Below are positions 9,470 through 56,593 of a stretch of 64,000 nt of DNA, in pieces (the stretch's first letter is position 1; each line of letters opens with the position of its first letter). The DNA is from an uncultured Bacteroidota bacterium. GTDB taxonomy: Bacteria > Bacteroidota > Rhodothermia > Rhodothermales > Rubricoccaceae. The position numbers and the translations under genes were made by a program. The stretch is from the NCBI GenBank assembly GCA_963848075.1, contig CAWKCB010000004.1:1270376-1334375 (forward strand), read 5' to 3'. Under the pieces are notes generated by a model that worked only from the letters and a program-made list of their open reading frames with translations, was not told where the DNA came from and did no database searches.

Positions 9470-9879
9470 CCCGAGCGCTCGCGGTCGCGGTCGTGCTCGC
9501 CGTCGGCGCCCACGCCCAGACGCCGGCCGACGCTCCCGTCCGCTACGAGTCGGTCCGCCTGGGCCACGGTCTCGGCCCGGCTCCCGTGGCCGGGACTGTC
9601 GCCTCTCCTCCACCCGGAGACGACTGGTTCGGCCGCGACAAGGCGCTCCACGCCGGCGGCTCGTTCCTGCTGACGCTGGCGGGCCAGTACGTTCTGACGG
9701 ACAAGGCCGCGCTCTCGAACGGCGACGCGCTGCCAGTCGCCGCCGGGGCCGCGCTCGCGCTCGGCCTGGCGAAGGAGGTGATGGACAGCCGTCGCGAGCG
9801 GGGCCCCCACTTCTGCTGGCGCGACCTCGCCGCCGACGCGGCCGGCGTGGCCCTGGCGGCGGCCGTGGTGGGGCTGTAG
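9466..9879 (+). CDS. YfiM-like (DUF2279) protein
   Basis: GRDKALHAGGSF ... GLAKEVMDSRRERGPHFCWRDLAADAAG parallels E. coli YfiM (QDKAQHF ... KELYDSR ... WSWKDLAWDVAG). GTGA overlap with the upstream gene. Confidence 0.7.
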   Translation: MTRALAVAVVLAVGAHAQTPADAPVRYESVRLGHGLGPAPVAGTVASPPPGDDWFGRDKALHAGGSFLLTLAGQYVLTDKAALSNGDALPVAAGAALALGLAKEVMDSRRERGPHFCWRDLAADAAGVALAAAVVGL

Positions 9880-9970
9880 GGTTCGGGGTTCGGGGTTCGG
9901 GGTTCGGGGTTCGGGGTTCGGGGTTCGGGGTTCGGGGTTCGGGGTTCGGGGTTCGGGGTTCGGGGTTCGG
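9879..9970 (+). repeat. perfect heptanucleotide tandem array (GGGGTTC) x about 13
   Basis: TTC recurs every 7 nt at 13 positions from 9882 to 9968, with GGGG between each. The array starts with the last G of the TAG stop at 9877-9879. Confidence 0.97.
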
Positions 9971-10061
9971 CCGGGACGACTCCGCGCCGGCCTCGATGAT
10001 CGAAGGCCACGGGGCGACAAGACCCCTCCGCACTCGGCGCACCTCGGACTCGCTCGGAGCT

Positions 10062-10089
10062 GAACCCTGAACCGAGAACCCCGAACCGG
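10062..10089 (+). repeat. four degenerate inverted heptads (GAACCCT GAACCGA GAACCCC GAACCGG)
   Basis: GAACC recurs at 10062, 10069, 10076 and 10083. This is the reverse complement of the GGGGTTC unit and lies 92 nt downstream of the main array. Confidence 0.85.
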
Positions 10090-10131: not shown

Positions 10132-10161
10132 CCATTTCCCCGTCCCCATTTCCCATTTCCC
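10132..10161 (-). repeat. C-rich heptads CCATTTC CCCGTCC CCATTTC CCATTTC (GGGAAAT/GGGGACG on the minus strand)
   Basis: Direct reading shows four 7-nt units upstream of purF. Confidence 0.85.
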
Positions 10162-10218
10162 GCGAGCGGAGCGAGTCCCCCTGCCGTTAACCTGTCCCTC
10201 CGGCCTCCCCCCGACACC

Positions 10219-11733
10219 GTGGACAAAGCGCGCGACCACTGCGGCATCTTCGGCGTGTTCAACCACCCCGACGCCGCCCGGCTGAGCTACTTCGGGCTGC
10301 ACGCCTTGCAGCACCGCGGCCAGGAGTCGGCCGGGATCGTGACGAGCGTCTACGACGAGGCGAAGGGGCGCCGCGTGATGCCGGTGCTCAAGGACTTCGG
10401 GCTCGTGCTCGACGTGTTCACCGACAAGGACCGGTTCGACGACACACTCGTCGGCGACGCGGCGATCGGCCACACCCGGTACTCGACGTCGGGGAGCGCG
10501 ACGAACCCGGCCAACATCCAGCCGTTCGTCGTCCACGACCGCGAGGGCCACTTCGCGCTGGGCCACAACGGCAACCTGTCGAACGCCCGGGCGATCCGCG
10601 AGCGCTTGGTCGAGCGAGGGACCCTGTTCAGCTCGTCGTCCGACACCGAGCTCATCCTGCACCTGGCGGCCCAGAGCAAAGAGGAGGGGCCGGTGGCCCG
10701 GATGGTCGACGCGCTCCACCAGTGCGAGGGCGCGTTCTCGCTCGTCATCCTGACCGACGACGCGCTCATCGCGGCGCGCGACCCGAACGGGTTCCGCCCG
10801 CTCGCGCTCGGCAAGCTCCCGCCGGCCGAAGGCCGCGAGCACTCGGGCTGGGTGGTGGCCTCGGAGTCGTGCGCGTTCGACATCATCGGGGCCGAGTACG
10901 TCCGCGACATCGAGCCCGGCGAGATCCTGGTCATCGACCGGGCCGGCGTCGAGCGCGTCGAGGCCGGCGGCGACTTCAACGGGGTCTGCATGCCGCGCCA
11001 CCACGGCGTGAGCCAGTGCGTGTTCGAGTACGTCTACTTCTCACGGCCCGACTCGATGGTGTTCGGGGCGACCGTCGACAAGGTCCGCCGCAAGATGGGC
11101 AAGCGGCTCGCCCACGACGCGCCGGTCCCCCTCGTCGAGAAGGGCGACGGCAAGCGGCCCATCGTGATGTCGGTCCCGGACTCGTCCAACACGGCGGCCA
11201 TCGGCTACGTCTCGGAGTCGAACAAGATGGGCCACCGCTGCAAGCTGGACATCGGCCTGATCCGGAACCACTACGTCGGGCGCACCTTCATCTCGCCGGG
11301 CCAGTCGAGCCGCGAGCAGCGCGTGCGGACCAAGTTCAACCCGGTCGCCGGCGTCCTGAAAGACCGGGTCGTGGTGATGGTCGACGACTCGATCGTGCGC
11401 GGGACGACGGCCCGCCAGCTGGTCCGGATGGTCCGCGACGCGGGCGCGGCCGAGGTCCACTTCCGGTCGGCGAGCCCGCCGGTCCGGTGGCCGTGCTTCT
11501 ACGGGATGGACTTCCCGTCGCGCGAGGAGCTCGCGGCCAACAAGCACGGGGCCGTCGACGCGATCGCCGACTGGCTCGGGGTCGACTCGCTGGGCTACCT
11601 CTCGGTCGAGGGGATGCTGGCGGCGGTCGAGGAGGCCCACGAGAGTAGGGACCGCTACTGCCACGCCTGCTTCTCGGGCGAGTACCCGGTGCCGATCGAG
11701 ACGGGCGTGGTCAAGGAGGAGAACGACTGGTAG
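10219..11733 (+). CDS. purF: amidophosphoribosyltransferase (glutamine PRPP amidotransferase), Fe-S type
   Basis: Short propeptide then CGIFGVF (N-terminal nucleophile Cys). PRTase motif VVMVDDSIVRGTT. Cys ligand pattern CVFEYVYF, WPCFYG, CHACFSGEYP. GTG start. Confidence 0.95.
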   Translation: MDKARDHCGIFGVFNHPDAARLSYFGLHALQHRGQESAGIVTSVYDEAKGRRVMPVLKDFGLVLDVFTDKDRFDDTLVGDAAIGHTRYSTSGSATNPANIQPFVVHDREGHFALGHNGNLSNARAIRERLVERGTLFSSSSDTELILHLAAQSKEEGPVARMVDALHQCEGAFSLVILTDDALIAARDPNGFRPLALGKLPPAEGREHSGWVVASESCAFDIIGAEYVRDIEPGEILVIDRAGVERVEAGGDFNGVCMPRHHGVSQCVFEYVYFSRPDSMVFGATVDKVRRKMGKRLAHDAPVPLVEKGDGKRPIVMSVPDSSNTAAIGYVSESNKMGHRCKLDIGLIRNHYVGRTFISPGQSSREQRVRTKFNPVAGVLKDRVVVMVDDSIVRGTTARQLVRMVRDAGAAEVHFRSASPPVRWPCFYGMDFPSREELAANKHGAVDAIADWLGVDSLGYLSVEGMLAAVEEAHESRDRYCHACFSGEYPVPIETGVVKEENDW

Positions 11734-16569: not shown

Positions 16570-17949
16570 TCACAGGTACAGCAGCGTCGCCGTGACGAAG
16601 AAGATGGTCAGGCCCAAGATGTCGTTCGAGACCGTGATGAACGGGCCCATCGCCAGGGCCGGGTCGATGCCGACGCGGTTGAGCACGAGCGGGACCGTCG
16701 CCCCGATGAGCGTCGAGAGCACGATGACGATCTGGAGCGACAGCGCCGCCGTGATCGCGAGCTGGCCCGTGTCGTCGCCGAAGCCGGACACCAGGACGAT
16801 CAGCGCCAGCGCCGCCGCCAGCACGGCCCCGTTCAAGAGCGCGACGGCCAGCTCCTTCCCGATCCGCCGGGCCAGGTCGCCCCGCCACAGGTCGCCCGAG
16901 GCCAGGCCCTGCACCGCGATCGCCGACGACTGGATGCCCGCGTTGCCGGCCATCGCCATCACGATGGGGATGAACAGCGCGAGCACGGGGGCCACCTGCA
17001 GCGCCTCCTCGAACCCGACGATGACCAGGCCGGACACGTAGGCGCCGACGAGCCCCAGCAGCAGCCACACCAGCCGGCCCCGCGAGACGGCGAACACGCT
17101 CGACGACAGCTCCTCCTCGCCCGTGATGCCGACGGCCCGCTGCAAGTCCTCCTCGGCCTCCTCGCGGATCACGTTCATCACGTCGTCGATCGTGATCCGG
17201 CCGAGCAGCCGGCCGCCGGCCGAGACGACGGGGAGCGCGACCAGGTCGTACCGCTCCATGATCCGGGCGACGTCCTCCTGGTCGAGGTCGGGCTCGACCG
17301 ACACGATGTCCGTCTCGGCGATCTCGGAGACGGGCGTGTCGGCCGGGGACAGCAGGAGCCGCTTGAGCGGGACGACGCCCGCCAGCCGGTCGTCGGCGTC
17401 GACGGCATAGACGGCGAACACGGGGTCGACGGCGTCGGCGTTGGCGCGGACGGCCTCGGTCGCCTCCGCCACGGTCGCCGTGAGCGGGACGGCCACCACC
17501 TCGGTCGCCATCAGCCCGCCGGCCGTGTCGTCGGCGTAGCTCAGCAGCGCCTCGATGTCGACGGCGTCCTCGAGCTGGACGAGCACGTCGTCGGCCTGGG
17601 TGACGTCGACGTCGGCGAGCACGTCGGCCTGGTCGTCGGACGCGAGCGGGTCGATGAGCGTGACCAGCTCGGTCGTGCTCAGGCCGTCCAGGAGGTCGAC
17701 CCGCTCGGCGCTCTCGAGCTCGGGCAGCGTCCGGCTCGTGACGTCGTCGGGGAGCCAGCGGAACGCGACCCGGGCCAGGTCGGGCGGGAGGTGCTGCAAC
17801 AGCGCCGCGACGTCGGCCGGCCGGAGCTCGGCGACCAGGTTGAGCACGTGGCCCCGGTGGCCGGCCTCGACCAAGTCGGCGACGACGTCGACCAAGTCGT
17901 CGTCGACGAGCGGCGAGGCGTCGGAGGAAACGGCGACGGGGTCGCTCAC
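16570..17949 (-). CDS. mgtE: magnesium transporter MgtE
   Basis: MgtE-N region, CBS pair, and TM domain with GIDPALAMGPFITVSNDILGL. GTG 17949 chosen; it forms a GTGA overlap with the rsmA stop. Confidence 0.9.
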   Translation of the reverse strand: MSDPVAVSSDASPLVDDDLVDVVADLVEAGHRGHVLNLVAELRPADVAALLQHLPPDLARVAFRWLPDDVTSRTLPELESAERVDLLDGLSTTELVTLIDPLASDDQADVLADVDVTQADDVLVQLEDAVDIEALLSYADDTAGGLMATEVVAVPLTATVAEATEAVRANADAVDPVFAVYAVDADDRLAGVVPLKRLLLSPADTPVSEIAETDIVSVEPDLDQEDVARIMERYDLVALPVVSAGGRLLGRITIDDVMNVIREEAEEDLQRAVGITGEEELSSSVFAVSRGRLVWLLLGLVGAYVSGLVIVGFEEALQVAPVLALFIPIVMAMAGNAGIQSSAIAVQGLASGDLWRGDLARRIGKELAVALLNGAVLAAALALIVLVSGFGDDTGQLAITAALSLQIVIVLSTLIGATVPLVLNRVGIDPALAMGPFITVSNDILGLTIFFVTATLLYL

Positions 17950-18941
17950 GGGCCGGGGCGGGAGGCGGCGGCGCCCAGGTGACGGGCCAAGAGGACGAAG
18001 TCGGCCGGGGAGACGGCCTCGGGGCGGAGCGTGGCGGCCCACTCGGGGACGTCGACGCCGGCGGCGCGAGCGAGCGGGCCCAGGCTGTTCCGGAGCATCT
18101 TCCGACGCTGCCCGAACGCCGCACGGACCGTCCGCTGAAGCGCCGCGAAAGGTACGTCCGGCGGCTCGGCGGACGCGAAGTCGATGGCCACCACGGCGCT
18201 CTCGACCGCGGGCGGCGGGCGGAAGCACGCGGCCGGCACGTCGAGCAGCTTCTCAGCCCGGGCGTAGAGCGCGAAGTACACCGACAGCGTCCCGTAGGTC
18301 TTCGACCCGTGCGGCGCCGCCAGCCGGTCGGCCACCTCGCGCTGGACCATCACGACGGCCCGGGCCACGACCTCGCGGGCGTCGAGCAGCGCGAACAGGA
18401 TCGGCGACGTGATGTAGTACGGCAGGTTGCCGACGACGTGGAGGCGCGGGGACCGGGGACTGGGGACCGAGGACTGAGGAGCACTGGGTAGGTCTCCTCC
18501 CCCCGTCGGGGGGAGGCCGGGAGGGGGGCGCTCGCCCGAGCCCAGCGGACGGTCCGACAGGCCCTCCCCCCGGCCCCCTCCCGGTGGCAGGGGGGGACTC
18601 TCCGGAGCGCTCGTTGCCGTCTCCGCCGCGAGCGCGCGCCAGTCGGCCTCCAGGACGTCGGCATGGCGGACGTCGAGGGCGGGGAAGCGTCGGCGGAGGT
18701 GGGCGATCGACTCCTCGTCCACTTCGAGCGCCACCAGATCCGGGTACCGGCGCAACAGGTCGCCCGTCAGCGCGCCCTCGCCAGGGCCGATCTCGACCAC
18801 CCGCGCGCCGGCCGGCGCCCCGACGGCGGCCACGATCCGGTGGATCACGCCGTCGTCGGTCAGGAAATGCTGGCCGAGGCTCTTCTTCGGGCGGACGGAC
18901 ACGTGGGGAGGTGGAGACGAGAGGACGGAGAGTAGGCCCAC
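17946..18941 (-). CDS. rsmA: 16S rRNA (adenine1518/1519-N6)-dimethyltransferase RsmA/KsgA carrying an in-frame insertion of about 60 aa
   Basis: RPKKSLGQHFL, VVEIGPGEGALT (SAM motif) and VGNLPYYITSPIL are present. 331 aa, with a P/G-rich segment (residues about 107-166) between the SAM-binding region and GNLPY. Confidence 0.9.
   Translation of the reverse strand: MGLLSVLSSPPPHVSVRPKKSLGQHFLTDDGVIHRIVAAVGAPAGARVVEIGPGEGALTGDLLRRYPDLVALEVDEESIAHLRRRFPALDVRHADVLEADWRALAAETATSAPESPPLPPGGGRGEGLSDRPLGSGERPPPGLPPTGGGDLPSAPQSSVPSPRSPRLHVVGNLPYYITSPILFALLDAREVVARAVVMVQREVADRLAAPHGSKTYGTLSVYFALYARAEKLLDVPAACFRPPPAVESAVVAIDFASAEPPDVPFAALQRTVRAAFGQRRKMLRNSLGPLARAAGVDVPEWAATLRPEAVSPADFVLLARHLGAAASRPGP
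18444..18623. repeat. repeat- and hairpin-rich element embedded in frame in rsmA
   Basis: Heptads GGGGACC GGGGACT GGGGACC GAGGACT GAGGAGC at 18448-18482. Perfect hairpin CCTCCCCCC (18496-18504) / GGGGGGAGG (18508-18516). 11-bp inverted repeat CCGGGAGGGGG (18517-18527) / CCCCCTCCCGG (18574-18584). Confidence 0.75.
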
Positions 18942-19004
18942 CCACGGCCGGGACGGGCGCTCACCCCATCCTCCACTCTCTCTTCTCCGTCCCCCGCCCT
19001 CTCC

Positions 19005-49717: not shown

Positions 49718-49766
49718 GGGGAACGGGGAACGGGGAACGGGGAACGGGGAACGGGGAACGGGAAGG
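49718..49766 (+). repeat. heptanucleotide tandem array (GGGGAAC) x 6 plus a partial unit
   Basis: Six perfect units at 49718-49759, then GGGAAGG. The array starts at the nucleotide adjacent to the PNP start codon, so the PNP mRNA carries (GTTCCCC)6 immediately 5' of ATG. Confidence 0.97.
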
Positions 49767-56563: not shown

Positions 56564-56593
56564 GGGCAATGGGAATGGGGAACGGGGAAATGG
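56564..56593 (+). repeat. degenerate G-tract heptads GGGCAAT GGGAATG GGGAACG GGGAAAT GG
   Basis: Direct reading. Located in the bamD upstream intergenic region. Confidence 0.8.

Follow-up and report, generated by a model that had tools for sequence, protein, structure and literature searches.

The question raised by this locus is why an intact rsmA gene should carry 59 extra codons just ahead of the sequence for a catalytic motif. The window analyzed here is a stretch of 64,000 nt from the genome of an uncultured Rubricoccaceae bacterium (GC 73%; GenBank assembly GCA_963848075.1, contig CAWKCB010000004.1). The gene in question, rsmA (ksgA), encodes the 16S rRNA A1518/A1519 dimethyltransferase on the minus strand (17946-18902), and the in-frame insert, rich in P, G, and S, occupies 18444-18620. 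A preliminary description of this DNA had proposed that an intergenic repeat element of about 180 bp colonized the gene while preserving the reading frame. The intergenic character and the preserved frame were upheld; in place of one 180-bp element there is a composite, and a single colonization does not agree with a loop of 20 to 125 residues among the orthologues. The insert is probably an intergenic-type, non-B-DNA repeat lodged in a permissive loop of RsmA, where it would be a tolerated passenger translated as a disordered P/G/S linker.

Gene, enzyme core, and insert

The gene was identified from its open reading frame (ORF), a Pfam RrnaAD match (E = 3e-44), matches to solved KsgA structures (best E = 1e-42), and an AlphaFold2 model compared using Foldseek. 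The product has 318 aa when counted from GTG 18902 and 331 aa when counted from GTG 18941; a database protein that is 100% identical to it (P0001, 318 aa) starts at GTG 18902. No interruption was found in the minus-strand ORF (17946-18941 in the ORF list). The uninterrupted ORF with about 60 extra P/G-rich residues had been noted in the preliminary description, and these residues correspond to the 59-codon insert, at which the structure alignments break. In the AlphaFold2 model, which was built on 50 orthologues, the core has a predicted local distance difference test (pLDDT) score of >90, and the model matches Escherichia coli KsgA (1qyr) with a Foldseek TM-score (template modeling score) of 0.87, target-normalized. 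Both the core of the enzyme and its motifs are intact.

The insert (TATSAPES...SPRSPR, minus strand) was delimited using the alignment break, the GC content at the three codon positions (GC1/2/3), the model, and the relatives. It lies between helix C (DWRALAAE) and strand 4 (LHVVGNLPYY), just ahead of the catalytic motif NLPYY. Every alignment with a solved KsgA structure splits at query residues 105-107 and 164-167. In the 3uzu alignment, query residue 105 pairs with chain residue 108 and query residue 164 with chain residue 113, which leaves about 4 chain residues against about 58 query residues, or about 55 extra. The earlier figure of about 25 residues for the equivalent stretch of E. coli KsgA was roughly right; the shortest orthologues have 20 residues there, against 77 in the window protein.

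In the model (318-aa numbering), a helix at 88-98 (DWRALAAETAT) is followed by residues 99-153 without secondary structure, a strand at 154-158 (LHVVG), and then motif IV, NLPYY. A surface loop had been expected at this place, and the model puts the insert in a low-confidence loop without secondary structure; the insert is thus predicted to sit at a fold-compatible surface site, with the core preserved. In the class I methyltransferase topology, the N-terminal end of strand 4 is on the sheet edge opposite the S-adenosylmethionine/adenine pocket, so that a loop there should be tolerated.

The frame is kept throughout the 177 nt of the insert. Its 59 residues include 16 P, 11 G, and 9 S, which is the composition that C-runs and G-runs yield in any frame. 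GC1/2/3 is 0.80/0.80/0.76 in the insert, 0.83/0.46/0.94 before it, and 0.77/0.52/0.95 after it; codon-position GC periodicity is absent from the insert, and its DNA is not coding-like. No stop codon interrupts any of the three sense frames of the insert; their absence is therefore uninformative, and of the insert's frame features only the length divisible by 3 reflects selection.

Repeats in the insert

By its sequence, the insert is composed of two inverted triplex-motif palindromes and a decayed heptamer microsatellite. The five heptads, the 9-bp hairpin, and the 11-bp inverted repeat listed in the preliminary description were all recovered at their places. The palindromes, which were left unnamed there, are class II (purine-motif) intrastrand triplex motifs, already described under the names BoxC, then PIT, then TM/TMECO (Holder et al. 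2015, PMC4666352; Hoyne et al. 2000 cited there). The TMECO consensus is CCCTCNCCC N3-6 GGGNGAGGG N3 GGGNGAGGG (PMC4666352).

Triplex motifs (TM) were sought using a re-implementation of an ITxF-type search (9-nt stems, ≤1 mismatch, G.G/A.A/T.A triads), with shuffles that kept the mononucleotide content in 300-nt blocks. Exactly two class II motifs were found in the 64 kb, both within the insert, and none in 20 shuffles. TM-1 (Y-R-R'; 18496-18528, plus strand, antisense to rsmA) has the sequence CCTCCCCCC GTC GGGGGGAGG CCG GGAGGGGGG with 0 mismatches. TM-2 (18562-18594, minus strand, rsmA sense) has the sequence CCCCCTGCC ACC GGGAGGGGG CCG GGGGGAGGG with 1 mismatch in the Y block, and encodes PPLPPGGGRGEG. 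In both, a C-rich block is followed, after a loop, by a G-rich block and then, after the loop CCG, by a G-rich mirror image; R' exactly mirrors R in each copy (GGGGGGAGG with GGAGGGGGG and GGGAGGGGG with GGGGGAGGG). The two motifs are on opposite strands, facing each other 33 nt apart, and form an inverted pair; no repeat or match was found for the 33-nt spacer (18529-18561).

The perfect hairpin at 18496-18516 has a 9-bp stem and a 3-nt loop. The inverted repeat 18517-18527/18574-18584 has 11 exact base pairs and reaches 93% when taken over 14 nt; it is part of a 38-nt inverted repeat, I1 (18492-18529/18561-18598, 74% complementary), which TM-1 and TM-2 make up between them. Perfect hairpins of ≥8 bp with homopurine/homopyrimidine arms numbered 1 in the window, against 0.1 expected from shuffles. 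Perfect hairpins in general were not enriched in the window (18 observed, about 23 in shuffles), and Rfam at the gathering threshold gave 0 matches over the whole window.

The G-tract heptamer tract GGGGACC GGGGACT GGGGACC GAGGACT GAGGAGC (18448-18482, plus strand, antisense to rsmA) encodes QSSVPSPRSP. Tandem Repeats Finder reported a period of 7 at 18447-18480, and the tract was also detected as direct repeat D4. Its first three units are intact and its last two degenerate, and the two-unit heptad pattern has 4 matches in the window against 1.3 expected. With just three intact units, the tract is weak evidence on its own and becomes convincing through the orthologues. It is a decayed G4N3 heptamer array on the non-coding strand, adjoining strand 4. 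A canonical G-quadruplex was rejected for these heptads, as 3 intact G-tracts are present and ≥4 are required; the next GGG is at 18486, 20 nt on. The encoded VPSPRSPR had been likened to PVPRSPF, the translation of an intergenic repeat described below. The likeness comes solely from both being translated C4N3 heptamers, whose units are not the same (CCCCRGT in the insert, CCCCGTT upstream of the PNP-like gene).

A dispersed 180-bp element in the window was rejected, since no second copy of the insert or its hairpins lies within the 64 kb. Of the further copies that the preliminary description had proposed to search for, partial ones were found. A 16-nt exact half-copy (CCGGCCTCCCCCCGAC, the Y block plus flank) lies in the purF upstream region (10200-10215, plus strand), near GAGTCCCCCTGCC at 10173-10185, which resembles the 5' flank and Y block of TM-2; another partial copy, identical over 23 nt, is intergenic in a related locus (L082 1796-1818).

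Variation of the loop among orthologues

Loop length was measured as the residues from DW to NLPYY in 119 Rubricoccaceae orthologues. It ranged from 20 to 125 residues with a median of 37. Loops of ≤28 residues were found in 39 of the 119, of ≥40 in 53, and of ≥60 in 21. The flanking parts vary by ≤6 residues (76-82 before the loop, 128-134 after it). The loops of the closest relatives have 36 (P0002), 34 (L001), and 25 (L002) residues, L001 and L002 being the two Rubricoccaceae loci among the matches listed (at least 80 loci) in the genome-contig search. The insert is absent from L002, and the alignment of orthologues that had been proposed as a check indicates that it is lineage-specific.

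At least five independent assemblies have comparable inserts, as do named isolates, among them Rubrivirga marina and R. litoralis. Judged solely by the names of homologues, the host belongs in Rubrivirga (Rubricoccaceae, Rhodothermales). Peptide strings of the heptamer type (PQSPVPSP- and PHSPIPH-type, from heptamers in three frames) occurred in 20 loops, against 4.5 when shuffled, and strings running from a P-run to a G-run, of the hairpin/triplex-motif type, in 10 loops, against 2.6. The rsmA loop thus behaves as a family-wide hypervariable hot spot of insertion and deletion.

One orthologue (P0112, 271 aa, on a 2.24-Mb contig) has a +1-frame stretch of 25 codons (STSSATCRTTSPRPSCSPCSTPGRS), after which the frame is restored. 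The shifted stretch starts exactly at the 3' end of the variable loop and eliminates motif IV (NLPYY). It looks more like a homopolymer sequencing error than a real inactivated allele.

DNA of related rsmA loci

Further rsmA loci were compared, namely L081, plus L082, L083, and L084 from one European Nucleotide Archive sample. NAD kinase is encoded upstream of rsmA in the latter three. The 5' side of the relatives' loops contains G-rich short tandem repeats (GGGGCAA, GGGGC, GGGGGAA), the middle contains short palindromes whose 5' arm is C-rich and whose 3' arm is G-rich, and C4N3 heptamers lie directly before LHVVGNLPYY (CCCGCAT x4; CATCCCC/CGTCCCC x5; CAGTCCC/CGGTCCC in the window). At the heptad site, orthologues have 4-5 near-perfect C4N3 units.

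The TM-1 module GCGCCCCCCTCCCGGCCTCCCCCCGACGGGGGGAGGAGAC is 92% identical over 38 nt to L082 rsmA (10453-10490) and 91% over 34 nt to L083 rsmA (10345-10378). The reading frame of this module differs, giving LPPTGGG in the window and PPPAGGR and PPPGGGR in L082 and L083; with 91-92% nucleotide identity in another frame, it is the nucleotide sequence that is shared, not the peptide. The reverse complement of TM-1 equals intergenic DNA at L082 1796-1818 (23/23 nt). The L084 rsmA module encoding PPLSPPVQEGDS is 93% identical over 46 nt to intergenic L084 1679-1724, 8.6 kb upstream, and to its intergenic counterpart in L083. These long intergenic matches reach past the G/C runs into the flanks. 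In rsmA of L081, the module is the reverse complement of one in L082 rsmA (88% over 43 nt), so one palindrome is present in both orientations. Within 21 kb, the triplex motifs of the relatives lie in rsmA and in intergenic DNA at about 1.7-1.85 kb of the loci.

The rsmA cores of L083 (10001-11035) and L084 (10001-11068) have 97.2% nucleotide identity, and their loop modules and heptad numbers differ, which indicates that turnover of the loop is far faster than that of the gene. The modules of both loci each resemble intergenic DNA about 8.5 kb upstream, and the two loops are candidates for recent gene conversion or element replacement. From these comparisons, the rsmA loop is a recurrent hot spot, not the site of a single colonization, at which modules have been gained, lost, swapped, inverted, and read in different frames.

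The published TMECO consensus is matched without deviation by the L082 rsmA copy (10363-10395). When this copy was used in BLAST as a 61-nt query, it matched 5,362 of 5,426 complete E. coli genomes, at a median of 14 places each, and among the matches listed no annotated feature lies beneath any of them.

Two further short repeats were observed in these loci. L082-L084 are crowded with GGGGCGGGGCGG / CCACCCCGCCC 15-21-mers in coding and intergenic DNA (for example, L082 7089-7109, 1772-1790, and 16852-16867), which points to a separate over-represented short motif. A perfect 18-nt palindrome, CGCCAGAGGCCTCTGGCG, has three copies in 2.2 kb of L081 (1121-1138, 1792-1809, and 540-559), situated in the rsmA loop (where it encodes TPEASG), in the first mgtE codons, and in the upstream gene. 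Strings of the EASGA-/TASGAG- type are found again in the loops of many orthologues, a sign that there may be a third family of dispersed palindromes.

Triplex motifs in other genes and phyla

A metagenome scan for CCCTCCCCC-N3-GGGGGAGGG matched at least 120 contigs with a GC content of 0.34-0.73. The third block, GGGTGGGGG or its complement, is upstream in most of the matches listed, and with this spread of GC content the class is cross-phylum. In a search for in-gene copies among 143 metagenome hairpin matches, an ORF spanning the motif and coding-type GC periodicity on both sides were required, followed by Pfam. Five clear in-frame cases were found among the 143, an uncontrolled sample that gives no frequency. 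They are an RluA-type pseudouridine synthase, with the motif inside PF00849 (L188 326-1276); a hydantoinase A, with the motif between Hydantoinase_A and the C-terminal domain (L162 2-2497); two UvrA-like ATPases with several motifs each (L149 2-3544 and L160 2785-9198); and a histidine kinase (L117 192-4352). The rsmA case is therefore not unique, as in-frame triplex motifs are present in other Pfam-supported genes of unrelated bacteria. No paper on BoxC-type motifs inside genes was found in the open literature, subscription journals being outside the scope of the search, and this is not proof of absence. A wider proposition is tentative and stands well below the reading of the insert itself: BoxC-type motifs could be a cross-phylum class of small palindromes, mobile or recombinogenic, whose repeated in-frame entry into conserved genes seeds self-perpetuating hypervariable disordered loops, to which the 7-nt repeats of rsmA might add a frameshift switch.

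Other features of the window

Heptamer arrays of ≥4 units numbered 4 in the window, against 0.37 in shuffles. An intergenic (GGGGTTC)x13 array (9879-9969, plus strand) begins one base after a TAG stop, and its inverted partner, (GAACCCY)x4 (10060-10088, plus strand), lies about 90 nt downstream. C-tract heptamers (CCCCGTC CCCATTT CCCATTT...) are found upstream of purF (10138-10165, plus strand). A (GGGGAAC)x6.4 array (49718-49766, plus strand) abuts the ATG (49717) of a minus-strand gene, and is the repeat that the preliminary description had placed upstream of PNP. G-tract heptamers (GGGCAAT GGGAATG GGGAACG GGGAAAT) are also present at 56564-56591 (plus strand). In their placement, the window's intergenic arrays follow a rule that has been published for the G4 heptamers of Xanthomonas and Nostoc (Rehm et al. 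2015, PMC4692102). The rsmA tract shares the unit type of these arrays.

Directly downstream of rsmA, an mgtE-like Mg2+ transporter gene (16570-17949, minus strand) was recognized from the ORF list and sequence. Its GTG start overlaps the rsmA stop codon in GTGA at 17946-17949. The rsmA-mgtE arrangement, including the MgtE Pfam domains, is common to all four related loci (L081-L084). Because of the overlap, a frameshift in the loop could also touch mgtE translation. On the other side of rsmA, at 18903-19004, the gap from the upstream 866-aa gene to the rsmA start is taken up by a long, imperfect palindrome whose arms are G/A-rich and C/T-rich (GGGGAGGTGGAGACGAGAGGACGGAGAG ... CTCTCTTCTCCGTCCCC), and which may be a terminator-like or regulatory hairpin.

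Origin of the insert

If the insert is intergenic-type repeat DNA in a permissive loop, its modules would have come into rsmA from intergenic copies, whether through gene conversion, ectopic recombination, template switching, or transposition of an unknown kind. There, by forming hairpins, triplexes, or G-tract structures, they would stall replication and lead to slippage, deletion, inversion, and further insertion. As the structures of the modules would promote instability, the rsmA site would stay a hot spot. Selection would remove only the variants that break the frame or disturb the fold, and the insert peptide would have no function of its own. Purine-motif triplexes are unable to form in RNA (PMC4666352), so that any triplex effect would be at the DNA level, and the mRNA would see 9-bp G:C hairpins only.

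Several points count against this account. The sequence is of low complexity, and some of the module similarity could be convergent. The dispersal of modules was seen in relatives, and within the 64 kb of the insert's own genome only the rsmA copies of the triplex motifs are present; a search there for the 180-bp insert or its 21-nt hairpin (≤3 mismatches) gave no further copy. No target-site duplication, transposase, or other insertion mechanism was identified (a RAYT [REP-associated tyrosine transposase] gene was not searched for), and the literature found gives no mobility mechanism for triplex motifs (PMC4666352). In vitro, single-stranded TMECO adopts a stable triplex, but footprinting in E. 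coli in vivo gave no support for one (PMC4666352). The window copies fail the strict TMECO consensus applied as a regular expression, and when their doublet was used as a BLAST query, no E. coli genome was matched. The window copies are thus outside the E. coli subfamily, and their block structure marks them as members of the structural class of class II triplex motifs. The 186-nt stretch does not surpass dinucleotide shuffles in folding energy (z = +0.73 and -0.50 by strand), so the anomaly of the insert is its G-run/C-run architecture and not extra stability. Thermodynamic stability was dropped as evidence for the insert, both strands, folded as RNA, being no better than the shuffles. For the disordered linker, the block-mean pLDDT of the insert in the AlphaFold2 model is about 50-70, and a low pLDDT is not proof of disorder.

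The main rival is that the loop DNA, being unconstrained, grew in place by slippage and hairpin-templated mutation and resembles intergenic DNA by convergence. This would agree with the absence of target-site duplications, of a transposase, and of a second copy in the window, and with the very low complexity and unexceptional folding energy of the insert; the heptamer units also differ by lineage, as local microsatellite evolution predicts. Growth in place is nevertheless unlikely, because the long intergenic matches extend into the flanks (23/23 nt; 93% over 46 nt), bacteria of different phyla share the three-block architecture and the consensus, a single site has modules facing either way and read in different frames, and two strains with 97% identical cores have different modules, each with an intergenic relative about 8.5 kb away.

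A phase-variation cassette is a good deal less probable. On this explanation, 7-nt slippage or triplex-motif instability would toggle RsmA, and perhaps mgtE, with consequences for translation fidelity or kasugamycin susceptibility in a subpopulation. In its favor, catalytic motif IV is encoded downstream of the heptads, a gain or loss of one unit would truncate the protein at residue 232 or 195, near-perfect units number 4-5 in orthologues, the stop of rsmA and the start of mgtE overlap, and the frame-shifted stretch of P0112 begins exactly at the 3' end of the loop. Against this, the window has 3 intact units, and most tracts known to be phase-variable have greater length and purity. All orthologues except P0112 are in frame (in a database that favors intact ORFs), and P0112, with its frame restored after 25 codons, is more like the product of homopolymer sequencing errors. 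The published heptamers have also been tied to the stability of their neighborhood, not to switching.

Equally improbable is that the loop was selected as an adaptive P/G-rich extension, for example as a docking site or spacer for ribosome assembly partners, with the DNA repeats incidental. Most of the family keeps some extension (loops of ≥40 residues in 53 of 119), and a function is possible for proline-rich linkers. However, codon-position GC periodicity is absent from the insert, and homologous DNA is found in different frames and orientations. Loop length has a six-fold range with many orthologues keeping a minimal loop, and the model has low confidence and no predicted structure in the insert. 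An assembly or sequencing artefact or a pseudogene, for which the error-prone (on some platforms) G/C runs of 6-7 bases in the insert and the example of P0112 might speak, is very improbable given a frame intact over 177 nt, conserved flanking catalytic motifs, and comparable inserts in at least five independent assemblies and in the isolates R. marina and R. litoralis.

With the insert read as intergenic-type repeat DNA, what is new is the presence of two repeat classes known as intergenic in the coding frame of a universally conserved rRNA methyltransferase. The rsmA loop would offer a natural system for testing in vivo DNA destabilization by such motifs, with the reading frame as a built-in reporter. 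It also suggests one route by which disordered P/G-rich loops can arise in bacterial proteins, and it cautions those who annotate genes or predict structures against taking such loops, which are repeat DNA, for protein domains.

Comparison with known systems

E. coli K-12 has 23 TMECO copies, always intergenic, of which five pairs are inverted (PMC4666352). No promoter or terminator activity was found for TMECO; its neighborhood has raised variability among strains, and stalling or slippage was proposed for E. coli (PMC4666352). The window copies resemble this class in their three blocks, 3-nt loops, CCG loop (as in E. coli type B), and 9-nt stems with ≤1 mismatch, in forming an inverted pair on opposite strands as the five E. 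coli pairs do, in their local insertion/deletion variability, and in being without known function. They differ in their host, a member of the Rhodothermales, whereas TMECO was reported from Proteobacteria, and in the position of their single A/T (CCTCCCCCC / GGGGGGAGG). Above all, they lie inside the conserved rsmA ORF, while the E. coli copies are always intergenic, and it is this location inside the reading frame that makes the window triplex motifs unusual.

G-rich heptameric repeats are abundant, mostly intergenic, and G-quadruplex-forming, for instance GGGNATC in Xanthomonas and GGGGA(C/T)T in Nostoc; they are found less often than expected in coding DNA and are linked to increased stability of their neighborhood (PMC4692102). 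The rsmA unit is likewise 7 nt long with a G4 tract, one unit is exactly GGGGACT, and the G-rich strand is the non-coding one. The rsmA tract differs in being coding, in having 3 intact G4 tracts against the four that a quadruplex requires, and in belonging to another phylum. The Nostoc heptamers are presumably the complement of the cyanobacterial STRR1 unit CCCCAGT.

REP (repetitive extragenic palindromic) sequences and REPINs (REP doublets forming hairpins) are GTAG-tagged palindromes mobilized by RAYT transposases. Like them, the triplex motifs are short G/C-rich palindromes, often in inverted doublets, and GGTAG lies beside TM-1 and the intergenic L082-L084 copies. Unlike them, most triplex-motif copies lack GTAG, and the mirror-image third block is not a REP feature. 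GGTAG was observed 3-4 nt 5' of the C-rich block in 4 of 13 aligned copies (18488-18495; L082 1708-1716; L083 1760-1770; L084 1846-1856). With this minority of copies, the tag was set aside as proof of REP/RAYT kinship and kept as a lead.

Rickettsia palindromic elements (RPEs), which the preliminary description had cited, are an apt analogy. They are about 150 bp long, and each family has a conserved encoded peptide (PMC10969869). As with RPEs, a small palindromic repeat lies in frame in a housekeeping gene, at a predicted surface loop, with presence and absence among orthologues and with non-coding copies too. The rsmA modules differ in being about 33-45 nt long, in being read in several frames, and in piling up at one hot spot with a microsatellite. 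By their size and variable frames, membership of an RPE family appears implausible for them, the RPEs having been compared by description only. As an analogy, the notion of selfish palindromes in proteins, which comes from Rickettsia, would thereby be carried over to a different element class in a different phylum.

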